A stretch of DNA of 64,000 nt from an uncultured cyanobacterium (GTDB lineage Bacteria; Cyanobacteriota; Cyanobacteriia; Phormidesmidales; Phormidesmidaceae): the NCBI GenBank assembly GCA_963833005.1, contig CAWHWK010000004.1, positions 19,173 to 83,172 on the forward strand. The letters are read 5' to 3'. Position 1 is the first letter of the stretch. Every line of letters starts with the position of its first letter. The notes under the pieces were generated by a model. It ran no database searches. It was not told the DNA's origin and worked only from the letters and a program-made list of their open reading frames with translations. A program made the translations under genes and the position numbers. Positions 5,472-55,143 of the stretch are shown here, piece by piece.

Positions 5472-7113
5472 GTAAGGATTCAGGGGGTATGTAAGTTGTG
5501 TGGCGAAGAATCAGCAGGAAAAGCTGTTAGATTAAGCGAATGAAAGAGCCATCTGCTCGGCTGAGTTCCAAGATAAGTGAATCAGACTGGGAAAAGACCC
5601 CCCCAAGCGTCAAAGCATTGGTGGAGAGTCTGTTGAGCAGAATTGACAACTTGGAGAGACAGTTCGAGACGCTAAAAGAGGAGAATCGCGAGCTCAGAGA
5701 GGAGAACAAGCATCTTAGAGCGGAAAATGAGGGTCTAAAAGAACAGCTCAAGCGCAACAGCAAGAATTCATCACAACCGCCGTCAGCGGACAAGTTCAAA
5801 GGATTCAAGGCACCGCCAAAAAGCGGTCGCAAGCGGGGCGCTCAGCCCGGTCACGAAGGCAAGGGACAAAAGCGATATCCGCCGGAGTCGTGTGAGCGAA
5901 TCGAGAATTATTACCCGAAGGAATGCCATCGCTGTGGCAGCGCCTTAACAGGAGCAGACCCGGAAGCGCACTGGGTGCAGAAGGTGGAGTTGCAGAAGGT
6001 GGAGTTGCCGAAGATAGAGCCGGTCGTCGTCGAGCATCGCTTTCACCAGCTCGAATGTGAATGCTGTGGTGCCCTGACGCGAGGGTGGGACGAGGCGATT
6101 ATCAACAGCTCTGCCTATGGCGAGCGCCTGAGCGCCCTAGTGGGCTGGCTGTGTAGCGTGGGGCATCAATCGCATCATCAGGTGCAAGCCTTGCTGGATA
6201 AAGCGTTCAATATCGAGATATCGACTGGCGGCATCAACCGGGTTCGCTGTGAGCTATCGGCCTCATTGGCGGACATTGCCCAGGAGGCCGGAGAGTACGT
6301 GCGGGATGCAGCCATCGTCAACATGGATGAGACGAGCTTTGTTCAAGAGAACGGAGATGGTCACAATCCCCAGAAGACAAAAGGCTGGCTGTGGGTGGTA
6401 GTGACGCCTTTGGTGAGCTACTTCGAGATATTTCTCTCTCGCTCGAAGGTGGTTGCCCAGCAGATATTGGCAGAAGACTTTGGCGGTATTGTCGGCAGTG
6501 ACCGATGTGGGGCTTACGTTTGGTTGGCCAATGACCAGCGGCAGGTCTGTTGGGCACATCTCAAGCGGGACTTCACTAAGATTGCCGAGCGCAGCGGGGT
6601 ATCGGCGCAATTAGGGGCGGCATTGCTCAGGCAACAGAAGCGGTTGTTTACGGCTTGGTATCAGGTGCGCGATGGCACCCTCACTCGAACGGGCTTTGCT
6701 CAGCAGGTGAAACCCATTCGAGCAGAAATCAAGCGCTTACTCGAAGAAGGCGCTAACTATGACGTGGCCACCGGAGAGAAGACGCCCTTGGCCAAGACGA
6801 GGGGCACCTGTCGCAAGATGCTGAGCGTTGAAACGGCCTTTTGGACTTTTGTCGGACGAGAAGGGGTCGAACCGACGAATAATGCGGCTGAACGAGCCCT
6901 TCGGCCTGCCGTGTTGTGGCGCAAACATAGTTTTGGCTCCAACAGTGAAGCGGGCAGCCGCTTTGTCGCTCGCATGATGACGACGGTGACAACCTTGAAG
7001 GCTCAACAGCGCTCTCCTCTTGATTTCCTCGCTCAGGCTCTGCAAGCCTCTCGTAAAGGACTTCCTAGACCGTCGCTGATCCCAACAATCGGCAGTACCC
7101 TCTGAATCTTTAC
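5472..7113 (+). mobile_element. IS66-family insertion sequence (single-ORF type), 1642 bp
   Basis: The terminal inverted repeats are GTAAGGATTCAGGGGGTA (5472-) and TACCCTCTGAATCTTTAC (-7113), matching at 16 of 18 positions and starting GTAAG/GTAAA as IS66 ends do. The element encloses the transposase. The flanking 8-mers differ (AAAAAAAA vs CAATTAAC), so no target-site duplication is visible. Confidence 0.85.
5540..7105 (+). CDS. IS66-family transposase
   Basis: It has an N-terminal leucine-zipper-like coiled coil (LERQFETLKEENRELREENKHLRAENEGLKEQL). Zn-finger cysteines follow (CHRCGS...CECCG). A DDE region follows (MDETSF...GSDRCGAY...CWAHLKRDF), then an IS66 C-terminal motif (NNAAERALRP). 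There is an in-frame 15-bp tandem duplication at 5977-6006 (VQKVELQKVEL). Confidence 0.9.
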   Translation: MKEPSARLSSKISESDWEKTPPSVKALVESLLSRIDNLERQFETLKEENRELREENKHLRAENEGLKEQLKRNSKNSSQPPSADKFKGFKAPPKSGRKRGAQPGHEGKGQKRYPPESCERIENYYPKECHRCGSALTGADPEAHWVQKVELQKVELPKIEPVVVEHRFHQLECECCGALTRGWDEAIINSSAYGERLSALVGWLCSVGHQSHHQVQALLDKAFNIEISTGGINRVRCELSASLADIAQEAGEYVRDAAIVNMDETSFVQENGDGHNPQKTKGWLWVVVTPLVSYFEIFLSRSKVVAQQILAEDFGGIVGSDRCGAYVWLANDQRQVCWAHLKRDFTKIAERSGVSAQLGAALLRQQKRLFTAWYQVRDGTLTRTGFAQQVKPIRAEIKRLLEEGANYDVATGEKTPLAKTRGTCRKMLSVETAFWTFVGREGVEPTNNAAERALRPAVLWRKHSFGSNSEAGSRFVARMMTTVTTLKAQQRSPLDFLAQALQASRKGLPRPSLIPTIGSTL

Positions 7114-7417: not shown

Positions 7418-9217
7418 ATGTCTCTTCCTCACCTTACTCCAACTACCCTCCAGCAATATGCCACCCCGCAGTCTTATAGTCGGGGTGAAAGCTACTTTCG
7501 CGGCGGTGCGGTGATTTCTCTGACTCAGCGGCAACAGACTTTGCAGGGTGAGGTTGAAGGCAATGAGGTGATGCCTTATCGAATTACTATTGACTTTGAC
7601 GGTGGCGGTGTGACTCACGCTGAATGCACCTGTCTCTACAGCTTTTCAGGCTGGTGTAAGCATATCGTCGCGACCTTGCTGGCCTGCATCCATGAGCCCG
7701 AAATTATAGAGCAGCGTCCAACCCTTGCCCAACTGTTAGATCCGCTGACGTTAGTGCAAACCCAAGGTTTAGTGCAACATCTGGTTGCAGAACGTCCTGA
7801 TTTAATTGAGCTGATCGATCTACATGCGAGTCAGCTATTTCAACCCAAAGAGAACGTAAAAAGATCGGCTTCACCGTCTAAGCGTAGAACTAGCGTCGAT
7901 CCAGTTCCTTTCAAACGACGGGCCAGAGAGATTTTGCGTAGCGCTGTTCGAGACTGGGAAAATGGCCGCGACGATGACGATATTGGGATAGACCTGGGTG
8001 AATTGATTGCCGATGCGCTAGCCTTTGCTGAGCAAGGGGATGCGGCGAATGCCTTGGTGGTTTTGCAGGGTGTGACTGAGGGCTGTGTGAACAATTGGGA
8101 TGAAGTTGAGAATTTTTGTGGGCTCACGCCTCTAGATGTGGGCGTTGATTTTGATGCGGCTTGGGCGGAGGCTTTGTTGAGTGCTGACCTGAGTGAGGAT
8201 GAAGTTATTGGGTGGCAAGAAGAATTAGAGGGTTGGCAGGACTTGCTGGGTAGCTTTGAGATGGCACTAGCGGCGCTGCGACAAGGTTGGGACTATGCGC
8301 CTTTGATACGGGTGCTGCAAGGAGACATTTCAGAGCTTGGGGCTTGGGAAGGGGAAGCGCCTGACTGGGCCGATGAGTTTAGCCAGATTCGCCTGAAGAT
8401 TTTGGCTCGCCAAGAGCGCTATGAGGAATATCTGCATTTGGCTGAGGGGGAAGGGCAAACTCAGCAGTATTTGGCCATGCTGGGCCAGTTGGGACGGGTG
8501 GATCAGGCGATGCAGGTCGCCCAAACGGATCTGACGACCTTGTCAGAGGCGCAGGCTTTGGCGGAAGTCTTGCGATCGCAAAATCAGCTACCTCAGGCGT
8601 TAGAAATTGCCTTACAAGGACTCCGACTAGACGACAGCAATCCCTACATAGCCTTTGAGTTTGCTACCTGGGCGAGTGACTTAGCAGAAGGCATGGGCGA
8701 TACCAGCGCAGCGCTAGCGTCTCGCATCATAGCGTTCAAAGCCCGACCGTCCTTTCAAGACTATCAGCGAATCGAAGGGCTAGCAGCAGATAGCTGGCCT
8801 GAAATTAAAGAAAGCTTGTTGCAATACCTGCGCGCTAGCCAGAGCTGGGGTATGGAACAAGCTCAGATCGATATTTTTCTTGATGAAGGATTGTTAGAAG
8901 ATGCGATCGCTGTCGCCTCAAAGCTCAGCAGCTATTACAGTTCGCTCATTTTGCGAGTGATGGATAGGGTCGTGGCGAGCGATCATTTAGCTCACAATCA
9001 GTGGGTGATTGACAATGCCCGCCCTCGTGCCGAATCGATTATGGATGAAGGTAAGGCCAAATACTATGCTGACGCGGTGAAATGGCTAAAGCAGATTAAA
9101 GCCGCTTACCATGTGCTTGGGAAAGCGGCTGACTGGTCTTGCTATCGTCAAGCTCTGCTTAGCCAGCACGGGCGTAAATACAAGCTGATGGGGTTGATGA
9201 AGGAGAATAAACTGTGA
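7418..9217 (+). CDS. SWIM zinc-finger domain protein with a long helical C-terminal region
   Basis: It carries the SWIM signature CxC..C.H (HAECTCLYSFSGWCKHIVATLL) about 70 aa from the N-terminus. The remainder is alpha-helical and repeat-like. Confidence 0.8.
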   Translation: MSLPHLTPTTLQQYATPQSYSRGESYFRGGAVISLTQRQQTLQGEVEGNEVMPYRITIDFDGGGVTHAECTCLYSFSGWCKHIVATLLACIHEPEIIEQRPTLAQLLDPLTLVQTQGLVQHLVAERPDLIELIDLHASQLFQPKENVKRSASPSKRRTSVDPVPFKRRAREILRSAVRDWENGRDDDDIGIDLGELIADALAFAEQGDAANALVVLQGVTEGCVNNWDEVENFCGLTPLDVGVDFDAAWAEALLSADLSEDEVIGWQEELEGWQDLLGSFEMALAALRQGWDYAPLIRVLQGDISELGAWEGEAPDWADEFSQIRLKILARQERYEEYLHLAEGEGQTQQYLAMLGQLGRVDQAMQVAQTDLTTLSEAQALAEVLRSQNQLPQALEIALQGLRLDDSNPYIAFEFATWASDLAEGMGDTSAALASRIIAFKARPSFQDYQRIEGLAADSWPEIKESLLQYLRASQSWGMEQAQIDIFLDEGLLEDAIAVASKLSSYYSSLILRVMDRVVASDHLAHNQWVIDNARPRAESIMDEGKAKYYADAVKWLKQIKAAYHVLGKAADWSCYRQALLSQHGRKYKLMGLMKENKL

Positions 9218-12307: not shown

Positions 12308-14398
12308 TTAAAAAATAATTTTTTTAGCGCTTCGCGCAGGGCACCCAAAGAGATAAAGGCTGTGTAAAAGAGAAACAACAGAAGAAGAGAAAAGTGCAAG
12401 AGGGCAAGAAGGGTAAAGCGCAATCAAGTCCTGGGCGCGACACAACTCACTCGAAAACCGATGCCGTTGCTGCGGTTGACGGGCGTAGTGTCGTGCGCGA
12501 AACGCGGAGCGGCAAGTCCTCGGACTGTAGATCCAGGAACCGCCGCGAACTACTTTGTTGTTACTTGTAGAAGATTCCCACACGCCGCCTTTTCTCGGCG
12601 CGCCTGTATAAGAATTATGCCAATCATCCTGACACCATTCCCATATGTTTCCATGCATATCGTATAGACCAAAGCTGTTAGGACGAAAGTTGCCTACATC
12701 TGTTGTTGTTTTGAGATATTTTCCAGTTGGTCCTTTTCTATAAGTAGAATTCTCATCATAGTTCGCTAGATCTGTTGTAATGGTTGGACCAAAGTGAAAA
12801 GGTGTTGTTGTCCCTGCTCGGCAGGCATATTCCCACTGCGCTTCACTTGGCAAGCTATAAACCCATTGAGAGCGCTGCGAAAGCCGCTTACAAAACTCCA
12901 CCGCCTCTTGCCACGAAACCTGTTCAACTGGATGCTTTGCACCCTTAAAATGCGCTGGATCTTTGTTCAAATCGCAATCTATCTGGTTTAGCGCTGCAAC
13001 CGCCGCCCACTGTGCCTGAGTCACCGCGAACTTGCCCATCCAAAATGCTGGCACCGTCACCTCATGCTGCGGATACTCTCGCTCAGAAGCTCCTTCTTCT
13101 CCTTCAGCCGCGCCCATCAAAAACTTACCACCCGGTATGCGCACCATCTCTAGCGTGACGCCATTGCCCAGGTCTTCGCTAAAGCACTCAGCCTCACCTG
13201 GAATTGTTTCAATCACCGTTCCCTGCTCATTCACCCGCACCGTTTCAAAACTGAAAGTCGGGTAGGTCAATTCTGGCCTGGACTCAGAAACCGATACAGT
13301 TGTTGGTATTGATGGCGGTTCTTCCACGACCAGCGTACGACCCGCTAATTCCTGCTCAATCAACTTTACATCCGCGTTTTTTAGCCCCAGGTACTTCTGA
13401 TAATCCTTAAGGTCTATCACATGGTCGCGACCTAGCGCTGGCTCATCTTCCAAACATTCTGCTAGGGCCTCGCGATACTCTTGCAGCTTGCGCTGATAGT
13501 CCCGAAAAGGCTTTAGCACCTCAGCTTCTATCGCTTCAGCCGCGCCGTCAGTTAACCCGCACGCCTGCCGAAACGAGGTCAGCAGTCTGCGCCCTACCGG
13601 CGTGAATTTCCCCTTGCGCGATCGCCGCTCTACTTCTTTTCGATACCTCAGCTCCGGCTTTTCCTGCGGCGCACTCGCCAGCCGAATATCATGCCCTCGC
13701 CCTTGCAGCATAATAATATCCGGGCTCATCGCGGGTGCCGTTTCCTTCACCTTGCGGCAGGCAAACTGATGCAGCTCATCAACTGTAATAAAGCCATCCC
13801 CATTTAGATCAGCCGTCCCTTTTTCAATTCCCTCCACCAGATAGCGCGTATATACAGACAGCTCCTCAGCCTTCGTTTCAAAGGCATAGTCCACCGCACT
13901 GGTTGAAGTCAGCACCACTCGTCCCTCTGCCGCAAGCTGCGCCTCTAGCTCAATTTCGCCATCATCGCGTGCCACCAGCTCACCAAACGCCCCGCTAAAG
14001 CAGCAGTCTAAAATCACTACCTGCTGCCGCGAGCGGCTATAGCGCAAAAAATCATTCAGCGATCGCGCCGCCATCGCCGTTGAGCGCACTAGCTGATCGC
14101 CCACCTTGCGCGTGCTACTCGTTGCAAAATACAGCTCGCGCCGGTCATCCTTAAGCCCATGCCCTGAAAAAAACAGCAGCGTCGTATCGTCTGCCTTGCG
14201 CTCGTTTAGCCACAGCTCAATGCCGCTTGTCATCTCATCGCGGGTCGGGTCAGTAAGCACCTGCACATCGTCAAAGTTGCCCAAAGCCGGATCGGCCAAA
14301 ATGCGCTGCACTGCTACCACATCCTGCACCGCCGCAGGCAATGCCGACAGACCTTCTGCATAGTTAGAAACGCCAATCAGCAGCGCAAATTTTCCCAT
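12308..14398 (-). CDS. Orthocaspase (peptidase C14) - EF-hand - FGE/SUMF1-domain fusion protein; the 3' end appears frameshifted
   Basis: The caspase His/Cys dyad is intact (LLFFSGHG; VVILDCCFSGAF). A canonical EF-hand loop follows (DLNGDGFITVDE). The FGE-sulfatase domain shows GKFLMGA..YPQHEVTV..FWMGKFAVTQAQW, HPVEQVSW, LPSEAQWEYACRAG, YDMHGNIWEWCQD, VVRGGSW..CRSAFR. The canonical family ending (..TPVNRSNGIGFRVSCVAPRT*) is present but in another frame, stopping at 12424-12426. See the findings. Confidence 0.85.
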   Translation of the reverse strand: MGKFALLIGVSNYAEGLSALPAAVQDVVAVQRILADPALGNFDDVQVLTDPTRDEMTSGIELWLNERKADDTTLLFFSGHGLKDDRRELYFATSSTRKVGDQLVRSTAMAARSLNDFLRYSRSRQQVVILDCCFSGAFGELVARDDGEIELEAQLAAEGRVVLTSTSAVDYAFETKAEELSVYTRYLVEGIEKGTADLNGDGFITVDELHQFACRKVKETAPAMSPDIIMLQGRGHDIRLASAPQEKPELRYRKEVERRSRKGKFTPVGRRLLTSFRQACGLTDGAAEAIEAEVLKPFRDYQRKLQEYREALAECLEDEPALGRDHVIDLKDYQKYLGLKNADVKLIEQELAGRTLVVEEPPSIPTTVSVSESRPELTYPTFSFETVRVNEQGTVIETIPGEAECFSEDLGNGVTLEMVRIPGGKFLMGAAEGEEGASEREYPQHEVTVPAFWMGKFAVTQAQWAAVAALNQIDCDLNKDPAHFKGAKHPVEQVSWQEAVEFCKRLSQRSQWVYSLPSEAQWEYACRAGTTTPFHFGPTITTDLANYDENSTYRKGPTGKYLKTTTDVGNFRPNSFGLYDMHGNIWEWCQDDWHNSYTGAPRKGGVWESSTSNNKVVRGGSWIYSPRTCRSAFRARHYARQPQQRHRFSSELCRAQDLIALYPSCPLALFSSSVVSLLHSLYLFGCPARSAKKIIF

Positions 14399-14550
14399 CG
14401 ATAAGGCAGGTGGTTTAGACGTAGGACTCCGCTATCAGAATACAGGTAAATATAAGGAAATTCAGGCAAACTCAGACGCTTTCGTATCTGGGAAATATCG
14501 TATTCTAATGTGGTTTTTCCTCATCACTAGCGAGCGTCATAGCCGTACCC

Positions 14551-14961
14551 TTACTTTTCTACTTCTTCTATCACCCGAATGCGGATGGATTCTAGCCGCT
14601 CTACTGCAGCCAACGCTTGCTCCATTTCTTCTGGATTGCGATACTCTAGCGAACATTCCAGCCCATCGGCTTTGTAATTCAACGTCAACGCCTTGCCATA
14701 AAACTGATTGCCCAAAAAGTCCATCGTTTTCTTCAGGTTTTCTCGGCTAATTTCTGCCGTTAGCACCCCGCCAACAAAGGCCAACAGCCCTGCTTTGGCT
14801 CCTTCGGACAGCTCTGATTGCCGCGCTAAGCGAGCAGACTCGGCCAGTTTGCCCGCAGTGAGTTCGTCGGCCAGCGTGAGCGATCGCACTTCCAGTTCAC
14901 TCGGCTCCAAATCCAACCCCGCCGCCGTCAAATCAATCGTCACCGCCAGCACATCGCTCAT
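14551..14961 (-). CDS. Small acidic protein resembling 'effector-associated constant component' EACC1
   Basis: It is 136 aa and lies co-directional, 152 bp upstream of the caspase gene. Its layout is VTIDL..EPSELE..L..EL...ESARLARQSELSEGAKAGLLAFVGGVL...GKALTLNYKADGLECSLEYRNPEEMEQALAAVERL. This matches my recollection of the small constant partners of caspase/trypsin effector genes. The assignment is from memory and not HMM-verified. Confidence 0.5.
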   Translation of the reverse strand: MSDVLAVTIDLTAAGLDLEPSELEVRSLTLADELTAGKLAESARLARQSELSEGAKAGLLAFVGGVLTAEISRENLKKTMDFLGNQFYGKALTLNYKADGLECSLEYRNPEEMEQALAAVERLESIRIRVIEEVEK

Positions 14962-16720: not shown

Positions 16721-17233
16721 GTGAATGATTATCAGTACCATAAAGGAGGTTTCCTAGCGCCCAGCAAGCGCCGAGTAATGATGGCGAGATCTCAGTCTAC
16801 GAGCGACCAGCCCAAAAGCAAGCAGTCTAAAAATAAGCCGCCTAAGCGCAAACAAACTGTTCGGAAAAAGAAGACTTTACCGGCTGACGCCCCCGGCTGC
16901 GAAACGTCTTTGGTCCATCTGGAGACGGTTCGGCAGGTGCAGCCCGAGGTGTTAGAAACCGAGAAGGCACAGCGGATGGCGGCGTTCTTTGGCGTGCTTT
17001 CCGATCCGCATCGTCTGAAGCTGCTATCGGCGCTGGCCCATCAAGAACTGTGCGTTTGCGATTTGGCGGCAGCGGTAAAAATGGGCGAATCGGCGGTTTC
17101 CCATCAGCTTCGGGTTTTGCGATCGCACCGCCTGGTCAAATACCGTCGGCAGGGCCGCAATGTCTGCTACAGCCTCGCCGACGGCCACATCACCGCGTTG
17201 TACAAAGACGTTGCCGAACATCTCGACGAATAG
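16721..17233 (+). CDS. ArsR/SmtB-family metalloregulator (ZiaR/SmtB-like zinc sensor pattern)
   Basis: The wHTH core is LSDPHRLKLLSALAHQELCVCDLAAAVKMGESAVSHQLRVLR..LV.YRRQGRNVCYSL. The alpha3N-type ELCVCD cysteines are present, and so is an alpha5-type D-x-H...H-x-x-E pattern (LADGHITALYKDVAEHLDE). A Lys-rich N-terminal extension is present. The start may instead be ATG 16778. Confidence 0.85.
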   Translation: MNDYQYHKGGFLAPSKRRVMMARSQSTSDQPKSKQSKNKPPKRKQTVRKKKTLPADAPGCETSLVHLETVRQVQPEVLETEKAQRMAAFFGVLSDPHRLKLLSALAHQELCVCDLAAAVKMGESAVSHQLRVLRSHRLVKYRRQGRNVCYSLADGHITALYKDVAEHLDE

Positions 17234-17276
17234 AGGCGACGAATAGAGGTGACGAATAGAGGCGACGAATAGAAGC
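17225..17276. repeat. 13-bp tandem repeat x4 that begins inside the last codons and stop of the ArsR/SmtB gene
   Basis: GACGAATAGAGGC GACGAATAGAGGT GACGAATAGAGGC GACGAATAGAAGC. A fifth degenerate copy, CGAATAGAGA, lies at about 17295-17304. The TAG of unit 1 is the gene's stop codon (17231-17233). Confidence 0.9.
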
Positions 17277-17343
17277 CGACCGGCAAAAGTCAACGAATAG
17301 AGATAGTGGCAGTAGCAAGGGCCTTATTTTTATGCTGTAATAC

Positions 17344-17375
17344 ATGAATAGCCTTTCATATGTTCAGCTATTAAT
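17344..17375. promoter_or_regulatory. Candidate ArsR/SmtB operator (imperfect palindrome with a TGAA-N6-TTCA core) upstream of the ATPase gene
   Basis: The sequence is ATGAATAGCctttCATATGttcaGCTATTAAT. Symmetric arms AATAGC/GCTATT flank a central CATATG. TGAA(17345-48)-N6-TTCA(17355-58) matches the core of SmtB-type 12-2-12 operators. It ends 22 nt before ATG 17397. Confidence 0.45.
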
Positions 17376-17396
17376 AGGTAATTAGCCGGTAGTGCT

Positions 17397-19373
17397 ATGA
17401 CAAAATCTCATTCTTGCAGTAGCTGCGCGCCAGATCCTGGACATGACCACGGCCACGATCACGGTCATGATCACGGCCACGATCACGGTTCAGGTGAATT
17501 CGACTGGCGAGAAGCGCTGACGCCAGTTGCGATCGCGACCGTTCTTTTCATCATCGGCCTAGTGTTTAACCAGCCGCTGCACAATACCCCCTATGCCATT
17601 GCCGAATACGCAGTTTTCATCCCGGCCTATTTAATTAGCGGGTGGAGCGTGCTGACCACCGCAGGCCGCAACATTTTGCGAGGGCGCGTTTTTGATGAAA
17701 ACTTTTTGATGACAATTGCGACGCTGGGGGCGCTGGCGATTCATGAGCTGCCCGAAGCCGTTGCGGTGATGCTGTTTTTTCAGGTGGGCGAGCTGTTTCA
17801 GGGCTATGCGGTAGGGCGATCGCGCAAATCTATCAAGTCTCTTTTAGAAGTGCGCCCCGAGACTGCCAATCTACAGGTCGATGGAGCCATTCGCACAGTC
17901 TCTCCTGACTCTGTAACCGTGGGCGACGTGGTGGTCGTGCGTCCTGGTGAAAAAGTGCCGCTCGACGGCGAAATTGTGGCCGGAAAGTCTCAGGTAGACA
18001 CGTCTGCCCTTACCGGCGAATCTGTTCCTCGCAGCGTCAGCATCGGTGAAACGGTGCTCTCTGGCATGATTAATCAGTCCGGCGTGCTGACGCTCAGAGT
18101 CACTAAACCTTTTAACGAATCTTCTATCTCTAAAATCTTGGAACTGGTAGAGAATGCCAGCAGCAAAAAGGCAGAGACTGAAAAGTTCATTACTCGCTTT
18201 GCCCGCTATTACACGCCTGCGGTTGTTTTTCTGTCTTTAGCGATCGCCATCCTTCCCCCTTTGTTGATTCCAGGCGCGGCCCAGGCCGAGTGGACCTATC
18301 GCGCCCTGGTGCTGCTGGTAATTTCCTGCCCCTGTGGCCTGGTAATTAGCATTCCGCTGGGCTACTTTGGGGGCATTGGCGGCGCGGCCAAACGCGGCAT
18401 TTTGATTAAAGGTTCAACGTTTCTAGACGCGTTGACGCAGGTGAATACTGTTGTTTTTGACAAGACAGGCACGCTGACCAAAGGTAACTTTCGCGTGAGT
18501 GAAGTCGTTGCGCAAAATGGACTGAGCAAACGTCAGCTATTGAAGCTTGCCGCTCAGGTAGAATCGCACTCTAGCCACCCTATTGCCCAGTCAATCCAAC
18601 AAGCTTACGAGCAGTCTGTAGATAGCGCTGTGCTGAAAGAGACTGTACTAGAAGAGTATGAGGAAATTTCGGGCCACGGCATTCGAGCGGTGATCAACGG
18701 ACAAACTGTGTTAGCTGGAAACGACCGGCTGCTGCACCGAGAAAACATTTCTCACGATGTGTGTCAGGTGGCCGGAACCGTGGCCCATGTGGCGGTTGAG
18801 GGTGTTTATTCTGGGCGAATTATTATTGCTGATGAGCTGAAAGAAGATGCTGCGGAGGCCGTTAGCGCTCTGAAAAAGCAGGGGATTCAGACCGCTATGC
18901 TCACGGGCGACAGCCAGTCTGTTGCCGATACGATCGCTCAAAAGCTAGGGCTGCACGACTACCGCGCCGAGCTGCTGCCCGAAGACAAAGTCAACGCCTT
19001 AGAAGCGTTTATACAGTCGGCGGCGCAGGCTAGAAAGAAGGTTGTCTTTGTGGGCGATGGAATTAACGATGCGCCAGTAATTGCTAGGGCCGACGTGGGC
19101 ATGGCAATGGGCGCGCTGGGTTCGGACGCGGCGATTGAAATGGCAGATGTGGTGATTATGACGGATGCGCCTGCTAAGGTGGCCGAGGCGATCGCGATCG
19201 CGCATCGTACGCTGCGCATCGTCTGGCAAAATATCATCATCGCTATGGCAATCAAGGCCGTGTTTATTATCCTGGGCGCGGTAGGCTTTGCGTCGCTGTG
19301 GGCCGCTGTGTTTGCTGATGTGGGCGTTGCGCTGCTGGCGATTTTGAACGCCGGGCGTGTGTTACGAGGCTAA
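17397..19373 (+). CDS. PIB-2-type (Zn/Cd/Pb) heavy-metal P-type ATPase with a His-rich N-terminus and no HMA domain
   Basis: Motifs present: N-terminal HDHGHDHGHDHGHDHG, TM6 SCPCGLVISIP (CPC), DKTGTLT, MLTGD, GDGINDAP. TM7/8 show NIIIAMAIK and ADVGVALLAILN (N..K and DxG signatures of the Zn/Cd subgroup). Confidence 0.9.
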   Translation: MTKSHSCSSCAPDPGHDHGHDHGHDHGHDHGSGEFDWREALTPVAIATVLFIIGLVFNQPLHNTPYAIAEYAVFIPAYLISGWSVLTTAGRNILRGRVFDENFLMTIATLGALAIHELPEAVAVMLFFQVGELFQGYAVGRSRKSIKSLLEVRPETANLQVDGAIRTVSPDSVTVGDVVVVRPGEKVPLDGEIVAGKSQVDTSALTGESVPRSVSIGETVLSGMINQSGVLTLRVTKPFNESSISKILELVENASSKKAETEKFITRFARYYTPAVVFLSLAIAILPPLLIPGAAQAEWTYRALVLLVISCPCGLVISIPLGYFGGIGGAAKRGILIKGSTFLDALTQVNTVVFDKTGTLTKGNFRVSEVVAQNGLSKRQLLKLAAQVESHSSHPIAQSIQQAYEQSVDSAVLKETVLEEYEEISGHGIRAVINGQTVLAGNDRLLHRENISHDVCQVAGTVAHVAVEGVYSGRIIIADELKEDAAEAVSALKKQGIQTAMLTGDSQSVADTIAQKLGLHDYRAELLPEDKVNALEAFIQSAAQARKKVVFVGDGINDAPVIARADVGMAMGALGSDAAIEMADVVIMTDAPAKVAEAIAIAHRTLRIVWQNIIIAMAIKAVFIILGAVGFASLWAAVFADVGVALLAILNAGRVLRG

Positions 19374-19445
19374 TAGGACTTTATTGAGATAATTGCACAG
19401 TTTTACGAAAAGAAAATCTGCGATCGCCTCAGCCATTTAAATAGG

Positions 19446-20994
19446 CTAAGAAATCTCTACGATGCCCATCATGCCCTGGTCCTCATGGTCAAGAATATGA
19501 CAGTGATAGACTGTGCGGCCCGCAAAATCTTCAAACTTTACTCGAATGGTGAGCGTTTCATAGCCGCCAACGCTTACCGTATCTTTCCACGCACGAAAGG
19601 GCTCCGGCTGACCGTTGCGCTCAACTACCTGAAAGCGGTTGGTGTGTAAATGGAAGGGGTGATCCATGCTGGCTTTGTTGATAATGCGCCAGTCTTCTAC
19701 TTGGTTTAGCTTTCACTTGAGTGTTGACACGGCCCATGACAAAAGACTGCGCATTGATTGTAAATCCGGTTGAGGCGGCTGATCGATCGATGCCATGATC
19801 AAGCACAAATTCGCGGGTGGTGTGTGGAGCCGGTAGCGGTTCGACGGGGATAAGCTGTTTTGGCAGGGGTAGCGGTTCGGTGCGGCTGCTTGGCATGTAG
19901 CGCAGAGTTGCGATCGCAGTTTTCTTTTGCTCCACTATCCCTGGCATCTGCTCAATCGCATCGCCCATAGACTCAACCATCTTGGAGACACCGCGATCGT
20001 AAGGCAGGCTAAAAATTTCGTAATCGCCCGGTTCTTGGCTCGCCGAAATCAGAAGTTCTGCCCGTTCACCAGGCGATAGAAATAGCGCATCTAGTCCGGT
20101 CGGTTCTGCTAATGCCCCTCGGTCTGTCGCTATTAAAAACCAGGGGTGCCCTGGCATTTGTAGCTGATAAATGCGCGAGGCCGAGGCGTTAATGAGTCGC
20201 AGCCGTAATAGCCCATTTTGCGACAGGCCAACCACTGGGTTTTGCTGCCCGTTTGCTAGCAGCAAGCTGCCTTCTCTACCCCATCTTTTGGCAAGCGTTG
20301 GCAGAGGTAATCCCTCTTTTTGAGGGCCACCTTGAAGCGCCGGTTCAAAATCTTGTAAGACTAAAATTTCTTCCTCAGCCTGTTGAATCTCAGGAATATC
20401 GTCTAAATCTCCTCGAACGATTAGCGGCCCTGCTAGCCCACCAAATACCTGCGGCGCAACGTTGAGATGATAGTGAGGATGATACCAGCCAGTGACCGCA
20501 GGATGGTTCTTAGGGATTTGAAATTCGTAAGTGTAGCGATTTTCGCCAGAAGCGTCTGTAGAAGCGTCTACGCCTGCGGCTACCTCGCGAAAAACATTGT
20601 CCACTTCAGGTGAAATATGCAGGCCGTGATAGTGAAGGTTGGTTGGACTATCTAGCTCGTTAACGAGTGTTAGACGAACCGTGTCTCCTGCACGGGCCTC
20701 AAGAATCGGGCCAGGAAATAGACCATTGTAAGTAAGTAGCCTCGTCGTCTGCTGTTTTGATGTGCCCATTAAACTGTAGGGCTGTGCTTTTGCCGTCAGC
20801 GAATACTCTAACAGTCCTGCTTTGCTGGTGATACGCTTTAGCGCAACGCTGCGACCCATGCGATCGCTGTTCGACCCTTCTCTTTTCAACCCTTCTCTTT
20901 TTGTACATTGAGAAAGCAAGGGCATGCCCGCTGCCGCTACCGCAAACCCTGTAAGCTGACGGCTAGACTGACGAAGAAAATGTCGGCGTTTCAT
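19446..20994 (-). pseudogene. Multicopper oxidase (Tat-signal), split by a +1-nt frameshift near 19710
   Basis: The 457-aa ORF (RRHFL Tat motif, HYHGLH, WYHPHYH) ends in out-of-frame residues. The 73-aa ORF at 19446..19667 carries the C-terminal copper sites (MDHPFHLH, HCHILDHEDQGMMG). Its frame is open upstream to 19712 and reads LNQVEDWRIINKAS. This continues ..RVNTQVK exactly as in the paralog (RVDIQVPLNTVEEWEIAN). Confidence 0.7.
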
Positions 20995-21034
20995 ACAAAC
21001 AAATAAAGGAGATAGATAAAAGAGATAAATAGAA

Positions 21035-22663
21035 CTATGCCTGTACGTCTATAACGCCCATCATGCCCAGTTCTTCATGGTCTAGGACGTGGCAATGATA
21101 CACGCTTTTTCCTGCAAAGTCTTTGAACCGCATCCGAATGCGAAGGGTTTCGCCGCCACGGACTAAGACGGTATCTTTCCACGCTAGGTATGGCTCTAGC
21201 TGACCGTTACGACTAATGACTTGAAACGATGCCGCGTGGAGATGAAAAGGGTGATCCATCATGTCTGCATCGACGTTGGCAATCTCCCACTCTTCAACAG
21301 TGTTTAAAGGAACTTGAATGTCTACTCGGTTTTCGTCGAACGTTTTATCGTTTAGCGTAAACGCCATTCCTCTTAAAAAAGACATTCGCATAGAGAGTTC
21401 TATCCGCCGCGTGTTTTGAGTTGCGGGCAGGGGAAGAACTGGAATAAGCTGAGAGGGAAGGACTGTTGTAGTCAAAGATTCGTCACCGCCATAAGCTTCA
21501 CTGTCGTAAGCTTCACTGTCGTAAGCTTCACTGTCATAGACTAAAGTTGCCAGTGGCAGTATCTTGGTAGCTGGTTCGTCAGGAGCCTCTGTACCGGCAG
21601 ATTCCATGTGCATCCCTTCCATAGAATCGCCTTGGCTCATGTTCATATCGCCCATACCGCCGCCCATACCGCCGTGCATCATGCCCATTCCACCCCGGTT
21701 GTACGGCAAATTGAGCAAGCGATATGAGCCGCTTGCTTGGTCGCCTCGAATCAAGACTTCTGCTCTTTCTCCAGGGACAAGCATGAGCTCTTTTACCTCA
21801 ACTGGCTCCGACAGCGCGCCACCGTCTGTTGCAATCAGACTCATGGAATGGCCTTCTAGCTGCAATCGGTAGAATCGTGAGATTGAGGCGTTGAGTAGTC
21901 GCAGCCGCAGCAGTCCATTAGTTGGTATAGAGAGATTTGGATTGATCTGAGCGTTAGCAGTCACCAGCGATCCCTCTCGACCCATCATTACCGCCATGCG
22001 ATCGGCTGAGGCAAGGTTACCTTCTTCGTCTAGCTGAAAGTCTTTGAGTGCTAGAAATGTCTCTGACGCTGATTTTATGGCTGGAATTTCGTCTAAATCG
22101 CCCCGTACGACGAAAAATCCAGAAAGACCGGCAAAGACCTGATCGGCGACAAAGCCATGACGGTGAGGATGATACCAAAAAGTACCGGCTGGATGATCTT
22201 TTGGAATTGTGAATTCGTAGGCAAAGGTTTCTCCAGGCTCTACGCTCAAAAAGACGTTATCGGCGTTGCCGCTATGTGAAATATTTAGCCCGTGATAGTG
22301 AATATTGGTGGGGTCAGGCAGATTGTTTGTAAACCGAATTCGTACGGTGTCTCCGGGGTTAGCTTCTAGCCTTGGCCCAGGGACTTGCCCGTTATAGGCC
22401 ATTAGCGTAGCCTGCTTGCCATTTAGCTCAAGGGTTCTGTAGCTAGCCTCTAAATCTAGATCTAGCAAGCCGTTGGTACTGGTATAAACAGTGTTGGAAG
22501 CGGATTGATTAGACGCAGATTGATTAGAAGCGGGAGCGGTCTTTTGCGCGTCATGAGATGGCACGTCATGAGATGGCGAAGACTTAGAGCTTTGTCTGCA
22601 CTGCGTTAGTAAAACTGAACCGGCAATAGCCGTGCTGACAGAGAGGAAATGCCTACGTTTCAT
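21035..22663 (-). CDS. Multicopper oxidase (CueO/CopA-like) with a Tat signal, a Met/Gly-rich insert and a YDSEA x3 repeat
   Basis: Features: MKRRHFLSVSTAIAGSVLLTQC (twin-arginine plus Cys), HYHGLN, WYHPHRHG, MMDHPFHLH, HCHVLDHEELGMMG. The Met-rich segment is GGMGMMHGGMGGGMGDMNMSQGDSMEGMHMES. The 15-bp DNA repeat lies at 21491-21535. Confidence 0.85.
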   Translation of the reverse strand: MKRRHFLSVSTAIAGSVLLTQCRQSSKSSPSHDVPSHDAQKTAPASNQSASNQSASNTVYTSTNGLLDLDLEASYRTLELNGKQATLMAYNGQVPGPRLEANPGDTVRIRFTNNLPDPTNIHYHGLNISHSGNADNVFLSVEPGETFAYEFTIPKDHPAGTFWYHPHRHGFVADQVFAGLSGFFVVRGDLDEIPAIKSASETFLALKDFQLDEEGNLASADRMAVMMGREGSLVTANAQINPNLSIPTNGLLRLRLLNASISRFYRLQLEGHSMSLIATDGGALSEPVEVKELMLVPGERAEVLIRGDQASGSYRLLNLPYNRGGMGMMHGGMGGGMGDMNMSQGDSMEGMHMESAGTEAPDEPATKILPLATLVYDSEAYDSEAYDSEAYGGDESLTTTVLPSQLIPVLPLPATQNTRRIELSMRMSFLRGMAFTLNDKTFDENRVDIQVPLNTVEEWEIANVDADMMDHPFHLHAASFQVISRNGQLEPYLAWKDTVLVRGGETLRIRMRFKDFAGKSVYHCHVLDHEELGMMGVIDVQA

Positions 22664-22690
22664 ACATTGAAATGCCTGTTGTTAAATAAC

Positions 22691-23203
22691 CTATGAATGT
22701 TCAGCGAAAGCAGCCGTCTCGCCCGATTTTGTGAAAGAAAAGACAGTGTACGGATCGATCTGACTGCCTGATTCCATACCTGGTGAACCGACTGGCATTC
22801 CAGGCACGGCGATGCCTGCAACATTCGGCTTTTCGATGAGCAATCGCTGAACATCTTCAGCCGGAACGTGACCTTCGATTATGTAGCTGCCAACGATTGC
22901 TGTATGGCAAGAAGCCATATTTTCAGGAACACCGTACTGCTGCTTGACGGCTGTCATATCTTCGGTGATTTCGTCTGTTACCTGAAAACCTGCCGACTCT
23001 ATATGCTCTATCCACTCACCGCAGCAGCCGCAGGTCGGGCTCCGAAAAACTGTGATGTCACTCGCCAAAACTGCTCGCGCTTCAGCTATATTTTCACTGG
23101 CTACAGGGCCTACATTCTGAGTACTTGCACAGCCTATTAGGATTAAACTTGTCAGCGCTAAACCAATTGCAAAAGATCTAGATCTAGAAAACAAATAATT
23201 CAT
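22691..23203 (-). CDS. DUF411 (CopG-type) metal-binding lipoprotein
   Basis: It has a lipobox (LILIGCAS) and the DUF411 signature: SPTCGCCGEW, MASCH, EGHVPAEDV, GIAVPGMPVGSPGME. It lies directly upstream of the oxidase genes on the same strand. Confidence 0.8.
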   Translation of the reverse strand: MNYLFSRSRSFAIGLALTSLILIGCASTQNVGPVASENIAEARAVLASDITVFRSPTCGCCGEWIEHIESAGFQVTDEITEDMTAVKQQYGVPENMASCHTAIVGSYIIEGHVPAEDVQRLLIEKPNVAGIAVPGMPVGSPGMESGSQIDPYTVFSFTKSGETAAFAEHS

Positions 23204-45275: not shown

Positions 45276-48242
45276 TTAGAAATTGAACTTCACACCGCCC
45301 GCAAACTGCACGCTATCCCCATCGTCAAACGCGTCTTCTACCCGCAGATAAACACCTGGCCCCCTAGAAACGCCCGTTCCAACTGTTTGCAGCACACGCT
45401 CACCCAGTTCATCTAAACGAAACGCATTGACCGGCACCTCGACCTGTTCGTCGTCCAAGCCAACCAGCGTCTCCATCACCTGCTTACCGCCAGCATCCAC
45501 AACCGCCTGCGTTTGATACACCGGCACCACATTACCCGCCGCATCATACTGGTACGCATCGCGCTGCACCTCTCCAAAAGGATGAAAAATAGCCTCAGCT
45601 CGCCAGCCCACGTCCGAACCGTCGCTGCCTCGGCCAAAAACAGTATCGCGAGCAAACAGCTCAGCTCTAACCGTATTAGCCGCCAGCGTCCAGGGCGTAT
45701 TGCCAAAATTCATCACACCGCCTAGCGTTAGCTCACCTCGAACCGGTGCAAAATTGGCTCGACTTTCTCTGCGAATGCTATTGACTTCATCACTCATCGT
45801 CACCTGGGAATCCATAAGGATAAACTCCTCAGAAAGAACGCGACGATTCACAAATCGCTCTTGCCCTGTGACAATAGAGACATCACTCCCAATCGGCCTG
45901 CTCGCGGTGTCTTCAACACTCAAGAGAGCACTCTCCAAGAATCTGGCATTTGTCAGCACGCCGTTTTCATTGATGTCAAACAAAGCCGTACCTGAGCGCC
46001 GGGTGATTCGATCCACGCCGCTTGTCGTCGTCTCCACCTGAGTCCGTGGAATTTCAAACGTATTGGCACTTTCTCGAATGCGCAGCTCATCCGTTTGAAC
46101 CGTCATTGACGACTCTGTGCGACTAATCACATTTTCTTGGTTACCAATTCCCCCGGTCAGCGTTCCCCCCAAATAGAAACCGGCAGCAACCGTAGTTTCT
46201 ACGTACGCACCCTGACCCGGATCGGTAACCACAGCTTCTACAGGAAAGAGCGTATTGCCGACTCGCGCATCCGCTTCACTGGCAATTTCAACGTCTACCG
46301 TGGGTACGCGCACCCCCCCAAACTGCTCTACATAGTTGCCCGGCACACCGTTAAAGTTTTCAGTGGCCGCGTTCGAGCGATTCGCAATCGTGTCTTCAAC
46401 GGCATAGACCTCTGCCATCTCGCGAGCAAAGTTTTGCGGCTGTCGGTCTGCCGAAATAATCGTAAAGCCGCCATCCGCAATCTGATAGGTTTCAGCCGCG
46501 CTATTAACGGCATAGCGCTGGCCTAGCTGCAAATCTTGCCCCGACTGCTGCGGCACCAGCGCATAGATCAGCCGCGTGGCTTCTCCAGCCGCTAGCGACA
46601 GCGGCTCTTGGGCATAGCCATCCACTGTCCACTGCGGCACAAAAGACACTCCGCCATCGGCACCTTCAACTAGCAAGCCCCCAACATTGTTCGTATAGGC
46701 CGCGTTGCCGCGTCCAACCTGACTGGCATCCGGCGGTGCAACCACCACAGGCAAATCCGCAGGCAAATCAAAAATACCGTCTACCGAACCAATCTCGCCT
46801 CCTAAAATTTCTTCGGGCTCCAAAGCGGGCACATAGCCAACCAATCGACGGTTGTTAAACAAACCGGTCGGCTCTAGCAATCGACGGTCGCTGCCGTCCG
46901 GATTGACAATCTCATTGCCAAAGACATCTCTTGCCTGCCGATGCGTCGGATTCAAAAACTGAGTTAGGCCAGCGGTCACCGTCAGGCCCGCTTCATTATC
47001 ATCTACAAATGGGTTGTAAGTCACATTGCCAGTCAGTAGCGTTGGCGGCACGCTAGGGTTTCTGATCAAAGGCGCAAGCTGACCGGTAAATCCCAGACCA
47101 TCGCTACCCGCTCTGACTTCATTAGCGGCAGCATAGCGGTTATAAATTAGCTGCTCACCTGTCTGCGCTCTGACACCTCTCGCATGGCCCAGCCGAGGAG
47201 AGCGTGAATCAGGCGCATCCACCTCTCCGTACTCTATAACCTCTTCAGAGACTATATCCATTTCCTGAACCGTCTGGATCATGTCCTCTTCGACATCTAT
47301 TCTTTCAACCGTCACCGGGTCTAAAGGGGTCTCAACAATGGTCTCGGCTACCGTAGTGTCGATCTGCTCTTCAATTGCTTCAGCCTGGCCGCTGCCGCCA
47401 GAAATATCTAAATAGTCACCATCGTTAAAGTCTAAATCTCCCCCATTCTGCAAGTCTTCAGCAATAAGTTCGCCACCCTGCGTAAAGTAGAGGCCAGATT
47501 CAGAAGGTGCCGCATTATCTCGGCGAAGGTTAAGCACGCGCAGCTTCACGGTATCTTTGGGGGTGTAGGTTACGCTCAGTCCATCTGACTGCGGCAAAGT
47601 CTGACCGTTAGGTCCAATCCGAACGCGGCCACCGCGCACAAAAGCGGCTTCACGGCTTATTTCATTGCCGTTACCATCTACAACAATCGCTTCAATCCCT
47701 TCCCCAAAAGCGTGATCGCCTACCCGCTGATTCACATCAAACTCAGTCGTCAACTGTAGAGAATCCACGTTTAGCACGTAGCCAGCGTCTCCACCGACGG
47801 CATCTTGAAAAGCGCCTTCGATATAGTCACTGTTCGTCGTAAATTCGATAGTGTTAGGAGCTAGCCGACTACGATCTACCGGTATGGGCTGACGCTGAAT
47901 AACCTGAGCAGGCAGAGCCGATGGCAAGGGAATATTCGAGGTATTCGTCAGCGGCCCTGTCTGAATAATGAAGCTGTTGTTATCGATTCGGACCGCTCCG
48001 GTTTCGCTGTCGCGCGTCAGATTGCGACCCAATCCGCCGTCTGTCACCGACTGAGCCATTGCCCCTTGAGCCATCAGGCTCAGGCCACCTGTGGCCACTA
48101 ACAGCGCTATTGCCACAGGAGCAAAACGGCCTTCTGCAGGGCTTGACTTAGGCATCGGTCGTAAAACACCTAGAAAAGTATGCGACGAAGCAAGTAACTG
48201 AGCAAATAACCGAGCAAGAGGTTTTTTAGATAGAGATGTCAT
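45276..48242 (-). CDS. Very large secreted / outer-membrane-associated protein with a DUF4114-like segment and a beta-barrel-type C-terminal Phe
   Basis: A signal-like segment is present (FAPVAIALLVATGGLSLMAQGAMAQ), so the true start may be ATG 48155. GGDLDFNDGDYLDISGG resembles DUF4114. The C-terminus ..VQFAGGVKFNF resembles an OMP sorting signal. It is a paralog of the partial gene at 1..423. Confidence 0.65.
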   Translation of the reverse strand: MTSLSKKPLARLFAQLLASSHTFLGVLRPMPKSSPAEGRFAPVAIALLVATGGLSLMAQGAMAQSVTDGGLGRNLTRDSETGAVRIDNNSFIIQTGPLTNTSNIPLPSALPAQVIQRQPIPVDRSRLAPNTIEFTTNSDYIEGAFQDAVGGDAGYVLNVDSLQLTTEFDVNQRVGDHAFGEGIEAIVVDGNGNEISREAAFVRGGRVRIGPNGQTLPQSDGLSVTYTPKDTVKLRVLNLRRDNAAPSESGLYFTQGGELIAEDLQNGGDLDFNDGDYLDISGGSGQAEAIEEQIDTTVAETIVETPLDPVTVERIDVEEDMIQTVQEMDIVSEEVIEYGEVDAPDSRSPRLGHARGVRAQTGEQLIYNRYAAANEVRAGSDGLGFTGQLAPLIRNPSVPPTLLTGNVTYNPFVDDNEAGLTVTAGLTQFLNPTHRQARDVFGNEIVNPDGSDRRLLEPTGLFNNRRLVGYVPALEPEEILGGEIGSVDGIFDLPADLPVVVAPPDASQVGRGNAAYTNNVGGLLVEGADGGVSFVPQWTVDGYAQEPLSLAAGEATRLIYALVPQQSGQDLQLGQRYAVNSAAETYQIADGGFTIISADRQPQNFAREMAEVYAVEDTIANRSNAATENFNGVPGNYVEQFGGVRVPTVDVEIASEADARVGNTLFPVEAVVTDPGQGAYVETTVAAGFYLGGTLTGGIGNQENVISRTESSMTVQTDELRIRESANTFEIPRTQVETTTSGVDRITRRSGTALFDINENGVLTNARFLESALLSVEDTASRPIGSDVSIVTGQERFVNRRVLSEEFILMDSQVTMSDEVNSIRRESRANFAPVRGELTLGGVMNFGNTPWTLAANTVRAELFARDTVFGRGSDGSDVGWRAEAIFHPFGEVQRDAYQYDAAGNVVPVYQTQAVVDAGGKQVMETLVGLDDEQVEVPVNAFRLDELGERVLQTVGTGVSRGPGVYLRVEDAFDDGDSVQFAGGVKFNF

Positions 48243-55011: not shown

Positions 55012-55060
55012 CAGTTACACACTACCTATCGCTTTGTCTTACTAGCCTAGCCTAATAACT

Positions 55061-55143
55061 CTTAAGAGATGGCGCTTAAGAGACAGCGCTTAAGAGACAG
55101 CGCTCAAGAGACAGCGCTCAAAAGACAGCGCTCAAGAAATAGG
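55061..55143. repeat. 14-bp tandem repeat, 5 full copies plus a partial sixth (about 5.9 copies) that contains the GGCT-gene stop codon
   Basis: CTTAAGAGATGGCG CTTAAGAGACAGCG x2 CTCAAGAGACAGCG CTCAAAAGACAGCG CTCAAGAAATAGG. The stop (TCA on plus) is at 55132-55134. Confidence 0.9.

Follow-up and report, generated by a model that had tools for sequence, protein, structure and literature searches.

A probable two-gene EACC1-caspase module in a Phormidesmis-like cyanobacterium, with an FGE-type lectin domain bearing the signature of a remote diversity-generating retroelement

Layout of the gene pair

We have analysed a 64-kb stretch of DNA from an uncultured, Phormidesmis-like cyanobacterium (contig CAWHWK010000004.1; hereafter the window), which carries one copy each of a small EACC1-like gene and of a gene encoding a caspase fused to an FGE-type domain with C-type-lectin (CLec) fold. 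The two open reading frames (ORFs), of 136 and 696 aa, are both located on the minus strand with a gap of 152 bp, just as the initial annotation of this DNA had described them (14551-14961 and 12308-14398). The evidence makes it probable that the locus is a canonical two-gene EACC1-caspase suicide or defence module whose lectin domain is targeted by a distant diversity-generating retroelement (DGR). Its features, all in window coordinates, are the following.

14551-14961, minus strand: EACC1-like gene, 136 aa, acidic (isoelectric point 4.55), predicted latent pore-forming protoxin (ORF, remote homology, AlphaFold2 model)
14803-14826, minus strand: loop R46-G53 (RQSELSEG), predicted caspase cleavage region (conservation, low model confidence nearby, analogy with KrEACC1 of Ktedonobacter racemifer)
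14749-14805, minus strand: Gly/small-residue-rich hydrophobic core EGAKAGLLAFVGGVLTAEI, residues 53-71 (sequence, family conservation, EACC1 hallmark according to PMC7159879)
14399-14550, minus strand: intergenic spacer of 152 bp between the EACC1-like and caspase genes
12308-14398, minus strand: caspase-linker-FGE/CLec gene, open frame of 696 aa, frame-corrected 657 aa with end at 12424 (ORF, frame comparison)
13739-14392, minus strand: caspase (Peptidase_C14) domain of the EACC1-associated type, with His80 at 14159-14161 and Cys133 at 14000-14002 (Pfam, NF047832)
13775-13810, minus strand: EF-hand-like DxNxDGxIxxxE loop DLNGDGFITVDE, residues 197-208, candidate Ca2+ site (conservation in 113 relatives)
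13151-13738, minus strand: linker, residues 221-416, without recognised domain (no Pfam or NCBIfam match)
12427-13150, minus strand: FGE-sulfatase/CLec-fold domain, frame-corrected extent, predicted non-enzymatic ligand-binding sensor (Pfam, TvpA)
12431-12547, minus strand: DGR variable region (VR) with hypervariable core at 12460-12544 (adenine-site test against the template of L014, see below)
12496, minus strand: extra G that frameshifts the VR, at a template-adenine position (template CGC AAC; here CGC G CAC; frame and strain comparison)
12350-12459, minus strand: conserved VR 3' end and post-stop flank (GGTTTTCGAGTGAGTTGT...CCCAGGACTTGATTGCGCTTTACC...), candidate DGR homing or target-recognition element (strain conservation)

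Promoter and terminator scans of the operon revealed neither a promoter-like nor a credible terminator-like site in the 152-bp spacer. A GCGCGAAGCGC mini-hairpin followed by an A/T-rich run is located at about 12321-12337 (minus strand), some 90 nt beyond the corrected stop codon; it may represent a weak terminator and was not called by the terminator scan.

The N-terminal part of the large protein matches Peptidase_C14 of Pfam (residues 3-220, 6.9e-17) and clears the cut-off of NCBIfam NF047832, ‘caspase, EACC1-associated type’ (caspase_w_EACC1; 165 against 140 bits, residues 5-218). The motifs FFSGHG and LDCCFSGA supply His80 and Cys133, respectively, and this dyad is kept in 112-113 of 113 relatives, in line with the initial annotation, which had described a C14 caspase with both catalytic residues intact. 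The EF-hand, which the same annotation had placed directly after the protease, is on the other hand located inside both caspase matches and is near-invariant in the subfamily: among 113 EACC1-type caspases, D197 is found in all 113, D/N199 in 111, D201 in 106, G202 in 104, I/V204 in 113, E208 in 109 and L209-H210 in 113. None of the Pfam models EF-hand_1, 5, 6 and 7 reached its cut-off (best score 21.8 against 25.9 bits), and a single loop is present; an EF-hand as a separate domain is thus ruled out. The loop, which is conserved, follows the DxD/NxDGxIxxxE consensus over its 12 residues; Ca2+ binding is therefore plausible, and a Ca2+ role is a reasonable hypothesis judged from the sequence. 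The near-invariant loop is a testable candidate for Ca2+ control of activation in EACC1-type caspases.

The small protein and its caspase partners

Unlike the caspase, the 136-aa protein has no direct match in Pfam, NCBIfam or PADLOC at E <= 1, and it does not attain the gathering score of PF19953 (EACC1). Its close family is made up of some 40 unnamed clusters that stem from Phormidesmis, Leptolyngbya and related cyanobacteria. A profile of 33 family members (A1), run against 1.84 billion representatives, retrieved 149 proteins at E <= 1e-3, nearly all of them 120-145 aa long and aligned over their full length. We scanned 146 of these matches together with the window protein (147 sequences): PF19953, matched by 28 distant relatives, was the only recurring Pfam family, and no NCBIfam family recurred meaningfully. 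A sister clade (A3, 37 sequences) includes the protein P0209, which, with 28.1 bits over model positions 4-105 of 107, surpasses the PF19953 gathering score of 23.6 bits, and the A1 and A3 alignments match each other full-length in hhalign (probability 98.4%, E 1e-14, 129 columns). KrEACC1, the sequence of which was taken from a preprint supplement, scores 28.2 bits on PF19953. The hydrophobic segment GAKAGLLAFVGGVL is also present. The 136-aa protein is most likely a divergent EACC1 homolog, with an indirect tie to the characterised KrEACC1; the EACC1-like identity proposed initially is thus borne out, through remote homology only.

It is hardly credible that the small protein is an unrelated partner that converged on the position and size of an EACC1. 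Such a convergence would account for the lack of a direct PF19953 match, for the non-significant hhalign comparison of A1, A2 and A3 with KrEACC1 (a single-sequence template, and therefore of low power) and for a fold search that yielded generic ferredoxin-like folds only. It is at odds with the full-length alignment to a clade holding a gathering-score-passing EACC1 member, with the PF19953 matches in 28 of 147 relatives and no second recurring family, with a partner caspase that falls within the curated EACC1-associated subfamily, and with a related locus (L023), in which the gene that precedes a caspase-FGE gene of the same architecture is labelled EACC1 by Pfam. Since the KrEACC1 comparison is not significant, the transfer of mechanism rests on the homology chain and the partner caspase.

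The link with caspases, which the initial annotation had suspected, is conserved among homologs of the small protein. In eight of nine distinct contexts, from three clades, the small gene is situated immediately 5' of a Peptidase_C14 gene and is co-directional with it.

Window and L006 (near-identical strain): caspase-FGE
L007-L010 (sister lineage): Peptidase_C14 gene
L002, Leptolyngbya sp. Heron Island J: C14+FGE
L003/L004: 1169-aa C14 protein on a plasmid-like contig
L005, 4572-7021: C14 truncated by IS66
L023: Pfam-labelled EACC1 with C14+FGE
L024, 6498-8604: C14 and FGE split into two genes
L025, Baaleninema simplex, KB235959.1, 6001-8856: C14+GUN4

The sole context without an adjacent caspase is an orphan EACC1-like gene (L001, 8001-8420), with a trypsin-like gene 2.6 kb away. 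The C-terminal modules of the partner caspases vary (FGE, GUN4 or, in the 1169-aa protein, unassigned), and the flanking genes are unrelated. Related modules show repeated decay, namely the IS66 truncation in L005, the split in L024 and the orphan in L001. In L025, the EACC1-like clade protein has 125 aa, and the opposite strand carries, 3 kb upstream, a gene for a large nSTAND1-WD40 protein.

The AlphaFold2 model of the 136-aa protein, built on the 147-sequence alignment, shows an alpha/beta fold (mean pLDDT, the per-residue confidence, 86; predicted TM-score 0.75) in the order strand-helix-strand / strand-helix-strand-strand-helix. In model numbering, to which one is added to obtain protein numbering, the elements are strand 3-9, helix 19-35, strand 41-46, helix 47-50, a lower-confidence loop at about 51-60, strand 61-71, helix 72-85, strands 91-97 and 100-106, and helix 109-123. 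Residues ~51-60 form the internal stretch of lowest confidence (mean pLDDT 68), and the Gly-rich hydrophobic segment constitutes strand 61-71 in this autoinhibited monomer model. In the segment GAKAGLLAFVGGVLTAEI, G53, G57 and F61 are kept in at least 90% of the family; in the preceding loop, R46 is the only invariant residue and position 49 is mostly D/E. The caspase is predicted to cut in the loop at about 46-53, the exact P1 residue being inferred. Foldseek comparison of the model with the PDB returned no solved homolog, but generic ferredoxin-like/CutA folds (E >= 0.03, TM 0.3-0.5).

This organisation corresponds to a described type of conflict system. As ‘System 4’, Kaur, Burroughs, Iyer and Aravind (eLife 2020; PMC7159879) defined the EACC1 system by two genes, EACC1 on the 5' side and, 3' of it, one whose product has an N-terminal caspase and a variable C-terminus. 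The present locus shares with it the small 5' gene with a Gly/small-residue-rich hydrophobic core flanked by alpha+beta elements, the 3' N-terminal caspase with a variable C-terminal module, a layout in which no separate NTPase is needed, and a filamentous, multicellular-type bacterium as host. It differs in its distribution: by its description, System 4 is widespread in actinobacteria and occurs sporadically in proteobacteria; here a divergent cyanobacterial clade is concerned, which the Pfam EACC1 model does not pick up directly. Moreover, FGE domains or DGRs are not named among the C-terminal modules in the System 4 section (PMC7159879).

Experimental insight comes from K. racemifer (Evans et al. 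2025; bioRxiv 10.1101/2025.11.14.688446). There, KrAvs12 cleaves EACC1 at about Asp49, just ahead of the hydrophobic segment; toxicity is confined to the C-terminal fragment, and cleaved EACC1 permeabilises liposomes and forms membrane pores. The N-terminal part of EACC1 forms a sheet with C-terminal strands, and our model agrees with this layout: strands are present in both its N-terminal and its C-terminal part, with an exposed loop of lower confidence in between. The same preprint also reports EACC1-proteases fused to DGR targets. Two statements of the initial annotation are consequently outdated: that EACC1 lacks biochemical characterisation, and that a mechanism of this kind is undescribed, given that the layout was known (PMC7159879) and the mechanism has been worked out (10.1101/2025.11.14.688446).

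Scans of the window ORFs found no STAND, AAA or MoxR genes within ~10 kb of the gene pair, and none of the linked STAND/AAA+ NTPase or adaptor (effector-associated domain, EAD) genes of NTP-dependent conflict systems occurs among its neighbours. The initial annotation had been right about this absence within ~10 kb. Its reading of the locus as a stripped-down, undescribed version fared less well, as the two-gene layout is the very definition of the system (PMC7159879), for which the absence of an NTPase is normal. That earlier proposal, in which a reduced, NTPase-independent variant is triggered by Ca2+ and the FGE domain, with the small protein as inhibitor, chaperone or co-effector of a caspase effector, appears very unlikely to us. 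The missing NTPase genes, the conserved EF-like loop and the presence of an FGE-type ligand-binding domain are what it can claim in its favour. Yet the NTPase-free layout implies no reduction (PMC7159879), the EF-like loop is constant in the caspase subfamily and therefore no added trigger domain, and the system that has been characterised loses its toxicity when EACC1, its toxic effector, is deleted (10.1101/2025.11.14.688446). By analogy with that system, in which the caspase is the activator of EACC1, the roles were probably reversed: the 136-aa protein would be the death effector and the large protein the sensor-protease. Overall, the identification made in the initial annotation is right; its novelty claim and proposed roles are not.

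A diversified and frameshifted lectin-type domain

The C-terminal domain matches FGE-sulfatase of Pfam (residues 417-639 of the 696-aa ORF, 3e-53). Its second-best solved relative is TvpA (2Y3C), an FGE-type DGR variable protein, which aligns ungapped across the VR (E 2.8e-23). The first Cys of the FGE catalytic pair is aligned with a Tyr at a DGR-variable codon, a three-residue deletion relative to FGEs is present, and every NCBIfam equivalog model scores far under its cut-off, PvdO for instance reaching 144 of the required 500 bits. The domain thus does not qualify as one of the FGE, EgtB, PvdO or GldK enzymes, and we reject an enzymatic role as FGE, EgtB or PvdO on account of the replaced Cys and the low equivalog scores.

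Codon alignment of the 3' end across strains limits the variation to about 14 codons between GGSW and GFRV, mostly at codon positions 1 and 2; the scaffold codons and the DNA past the stop codon are conserved. The VRs differ among three lineages, represented by the window, L006 and L007. The template was sought by scanning GTDB genomes for the VR scaffold pattern, and a complete DGR was recovered in Phormidesmis priestleyi Ana (L014, LJZR01000068.1). It combines an RVT_1 reverse transcriptase (RT) with bAvd, which scores 68 bits where 40 is the cut-off, and has a template repeat as well as two FGE targets. The template reads TGG AAC AAC AAT CCG AGG AAT TGC ... CGC AAC AAC AAT ACG CCC GAC AAC CGC AAC AAC AAA ATC GGT TTT.

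Over an 84-nt core with 28 template-adenine and 56 other sites, and with the template coming from a related species, not from the window's genome, the window VR is changed at 13/28 adenine sites and 0/56 others (Fisher p = 6e-8). The two VRs of L014, compared with their own template, gave 17/28 and 16/28 at adenine sites, and 0/56 at other sites in either case. Among 13 distinct template-like sequences from a metagenome scan, the Phormidesmis type alone has 0 non-adenine mismatches, the other twelve having 7-21; an identical copy of this template, together with an RT, is found in L030. The syntenic pair L023/L024 served as a control: it has 13 differences, distributed [0,0,13] by codon position and causing 0 amino-acid changes, against [11,8,2] and 13 amino-acid changes in the window lineage. 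On this sequence signature, adenine-restricted relative to a related-species template, we consider the FGE domain a DGR-diversified target.

In the control loci, which belong to the Pfam-positive EACC1 clade (L023 3861-6020; L024 7693-8604), the VR-equivalent FGE tail is protein-identical despite the 13 synonymous differences; ordinary purifying selection acts on this caspase-FGE paralog, which is not undergoing diversification. Within positions 1-8000 of L014, the template repeat (~1200-1341) is placed on the strand opposite avd-RT (1432-2927), and the FGE targets, of 351 and 922 aa, are adjacent, with an AAA/nSTAND-like ATPase gene upstream of the larger one. VRs of the same type occur on further contigs of the P. 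priestleyi Ana genome (L018, L019). Within the stretches examined, the other Phormidesmis DGR targets (L011-L022) have no caspase or EACC1-like genes.

The homology between template and VR stops at CCCAG, and the same post-stop flank is common to unlinked Phormidesmis DGR targets. Over the 110 nt that extend from GGTTTT past the stop codon, identity between strains reaches 94-97%, which exceeds the conservation of the coding sequence and fits a homing or target-recognition element. The window contains neither a VR repeat nor a YxDD ORF, and no RVT or Avd match of Pfam was obtained in 22 of its ORFs, among them most of the large ones. As RT, Avd and template repeat are absent from the window, the gene is a remote DGR target, or a former one.

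The initial annotation had reported a complete FGE domain. However, owing to the extra G at 12496, the 696-aa ORF ends in ~62 residues that are out of frame: the alignment with the L002 ortholog ends at CRSAFR (residue 634), and the canonical FGE ending ...HDTTPVNRSNGIGFRVSCVAPRT is read in another frame, with the stop codon at 12424-12426 and a corrected length of 657 aa. The VR is in frame in the near-identical strain L006, which has an intact 667-aa gene, and in L007-L010. The insertion removes the last strand of the lectin fold, so the sensor is probably disabled, unless the extra base is an assembly error. Three causes fit an extra G located exactly at a template adenine: the DGR may have introduced an error, the base may have arisen by ordinary mutation, or the consensus of a polymorphic stretch may be artefactual. 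The proposal of the FGE domain as a ligand-binding trigger was therefore right in spirit, and missed both the DGR variable region and the frameshift.

The gene also has a mosaic make-up when strains are compared. In comparison with L006, identity is 96-100% over nt 1-1600 and 66-70% thereafter; in comparison with L007, the caspase domain is 97-98% and the linker 59-88% identical, the linker being the most divergent segment between strains. This pattern suggests recombination between alleles or paralogs.

Two other readings of the frameshift deserve attention. In the first, the locus is a decayed relic: the frameshift is real, the sensor cannot fold, and the DGR has been lost or acts no longer. 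We regard this as unlikely, yet with a real chance of being correct, as the last ~62 codons are out of frame, RT and template repeat are absent from the window, kindred modules have decayed (L005, L024, L001), and one identical VR is found in four independent assemblies of the L007 (sister) lineage, with no sign of ongoing diversification. Such decay does not sit easily with intact catalytic residues, EF-like loop and entire EACC1-like gene, nor with the intact 667-aa gene of L006. The stretch is moreover hypervariable and possibly polymorphic, so that one inserted base could plausibly be an assembly or consensus artefact, and DGRs often act in trans on remote targets (PMC10907252, PMC7517822). 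In the second reading, the locus is a remote DGR target in which a hypervariable antigen receptor is wired without an NTPase to a Ca2+-gated caspase and a pore-forming protoxin of a cyanobacterial EACC1 clade that escapes current models, and the frameshift is a DGR-generated on/off (phase-variation) state of the suicide module rather than decay or an assembly error; we give this very little credence.

Proposed mode of action and genomic surroundings

Under the preferred reading, a two-gene EACC1-caspase module with a remotely diversified sensor, the hypervariable lectin-fold domain would bind an invader-derived or other ligand, and binding would activate the caspase, probably via oligomerisation and possibly with a contribution of the EF-like Ca2+ loop. 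By analogy with KrEACC1/KrAvs12, the caspase would then cut the EACC1-like protein at ~46-53 into a ~5 kDa autoinhibitory N-terminal part and a ~9.7 kDa C-terminal part. The latter, with the Gly-rich hydrophobic segment leading, may oligomerise to form membrane pores and cause cell death. A DGR elsewhere in the genome would have rewritten the binding surface of the sensor at template adenines, a step of which the sequence signature is what is observed.

Bacterial gasdermin-protease modules, in which a protease removes the autoinhibitory part of a small protein that then forms membrane pores, are used as an analogy by Evans et al. Gasdermins differ, as there is no relation in sequence or fold, and the inhibitory part of EACC1 is N-terminal and the protein far smaller.

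The proposed logic is the one of KrEACC1-KrAvs12, in which activation of a sensor leads to a cut before the hydrophobic segment (Asp49 there, the loop 46-53 here) and the C-terminal fragment forms a pore. The sensor differs, being an Avs/STAND ATPase that recognises a phage tail connector in K. racemifer and a DGR-diversified lectin fold without an NTPase here; pairwise similarity between the EACC1 proteins is undetectable, and their lengths are 114 aa for KrEACC1 and 136 aa here.

Several points weigh against the preferred reading. The small protein has no direct database match, and its comparison with KrEACC1 is not significant. The DxC motif beside the catalytic Cys, invariant here, would by comparison with metacaspases favour Arg/Lys at P1 (R46 in the present case) over the Asp reported for KrEACC1. 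The VR 3' segment differs from the P. priestleyi template at 5/28 positions, and a metagenome scan for a template with a 3' end identical to that of the window VR returned the P. priestleyi type only, again with 5/28 mismatches. The window is devoid of RT, Avd and template repeat, the VR of the sister lineage does not vary among its assemblies, and the frameshift may make this copy non-functional.

Orthocaspases have been associated with DGRs before. Vallota-Eastman et al. (2020; PMC7517822) state that cyanobacterial DGR variable proteins often have orthocaspase N-termini and may sit far from the element; Doré et al. (2024; PMC10907252) propose DGR-diversified CLec domains as antigen sensors and note that DGRs can act in trans. 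Our locus shares with these proteins, and with TvpA (2Y3C), the C-terminal FGE-type CLec domain and an adenine-templated VR at the extreme 3' end and, with the orthocaspase variable proteins, the N-terminal caspase-type peptidase and a position remote from RT and template repeat. Within the passages of these papers considered here, the caspase targets are not paired with an upstream EACC1 protoxin; the frameshifted VR and the absence of cognate RT and template repeat from the 64-kb window are further differences of the present locus.

The module may alternatively be a regulatory or developmental device, in which a DGR-tuned lectin domain of a filamentous cyanobacterium responds to a ligand, either endogenous or from the environment, and stress-induced programmed cell death or signalling is brought about by the caspase. 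We think this rather improbable. Vallota-Eastman et al. read cyanobacterial orthocaspase DGR variable proteins as a tuning of regulatory pathways (PMC7517822), EACC1-DnaK fusions hint at stress responses (10.1101/2025.11.14.688446), and the module occupies a conserved chromosomal position amid housekeeping and metal-resistance genes, with no obvious defence island. The only experimental EACC1 data, however, concern toxicity triggered by a phage protein (10.1101/2025.11.14.688446); Doré et al. argue for a role in antigen sensing of the CLec domains that DGRs diversify in conflict systems (PMC10907252); and the mosaic recombination and repeated module decay fit a conflict system.

What is new here is modest: a cyanobacterial EACC1-like clade that escapes hidden Markov models (HMMs), a remote DGR target with a frameshifted VR and a conserved EF-like loop. 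The protoxin clade, with ~150 representative clusters at 50% identity, eludes Pfam, NCBIfam and PADLOC models, so genome annotation and defence-system finders will miss such modules. One gene pair joins EACC1 protoxins, orthocaspases and DGR-diversified lectin sensors, and, being compact, lends itself to the questions of what is sensed by a DGR-diversified receptor and by what route its binding switches on a caspase.

The immediate neighbours of the pair encode a PhoD-like protein, a SWIM protein, an IS66 transposase, a circularly permuted ATP-grasp protein, ArsR, a P-type ATPase and multicopper oxidases; the remainder of the window consists of chromosomal housekeeping genes. The IS66-family transposase and a 599-aa SWIM zinc-finger protein lie side by side (5540-7105 and 7418-9217). 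Both genes are syntenic in L006, the contig of which terminates in the IS66 gene, and in L007-L010. A copper (metal) homeostasis cluster (16721-23203) comprises an ArsR-type regulator, a P-type ATPase, two multicopper oxidases and a DUF411 protein, and is kept beside the module in L007-L010. Two large ORFs had no Pfam match at E <= 1e-4, one of 988 aa (45276-48242, minus strand) and one of 576 aa (60420-62150, plus strand). An intergenic tandem array at 55047-55142 is made up of about seven copies of a 14-nt unit (CTTAAGAGACAGCG-like).

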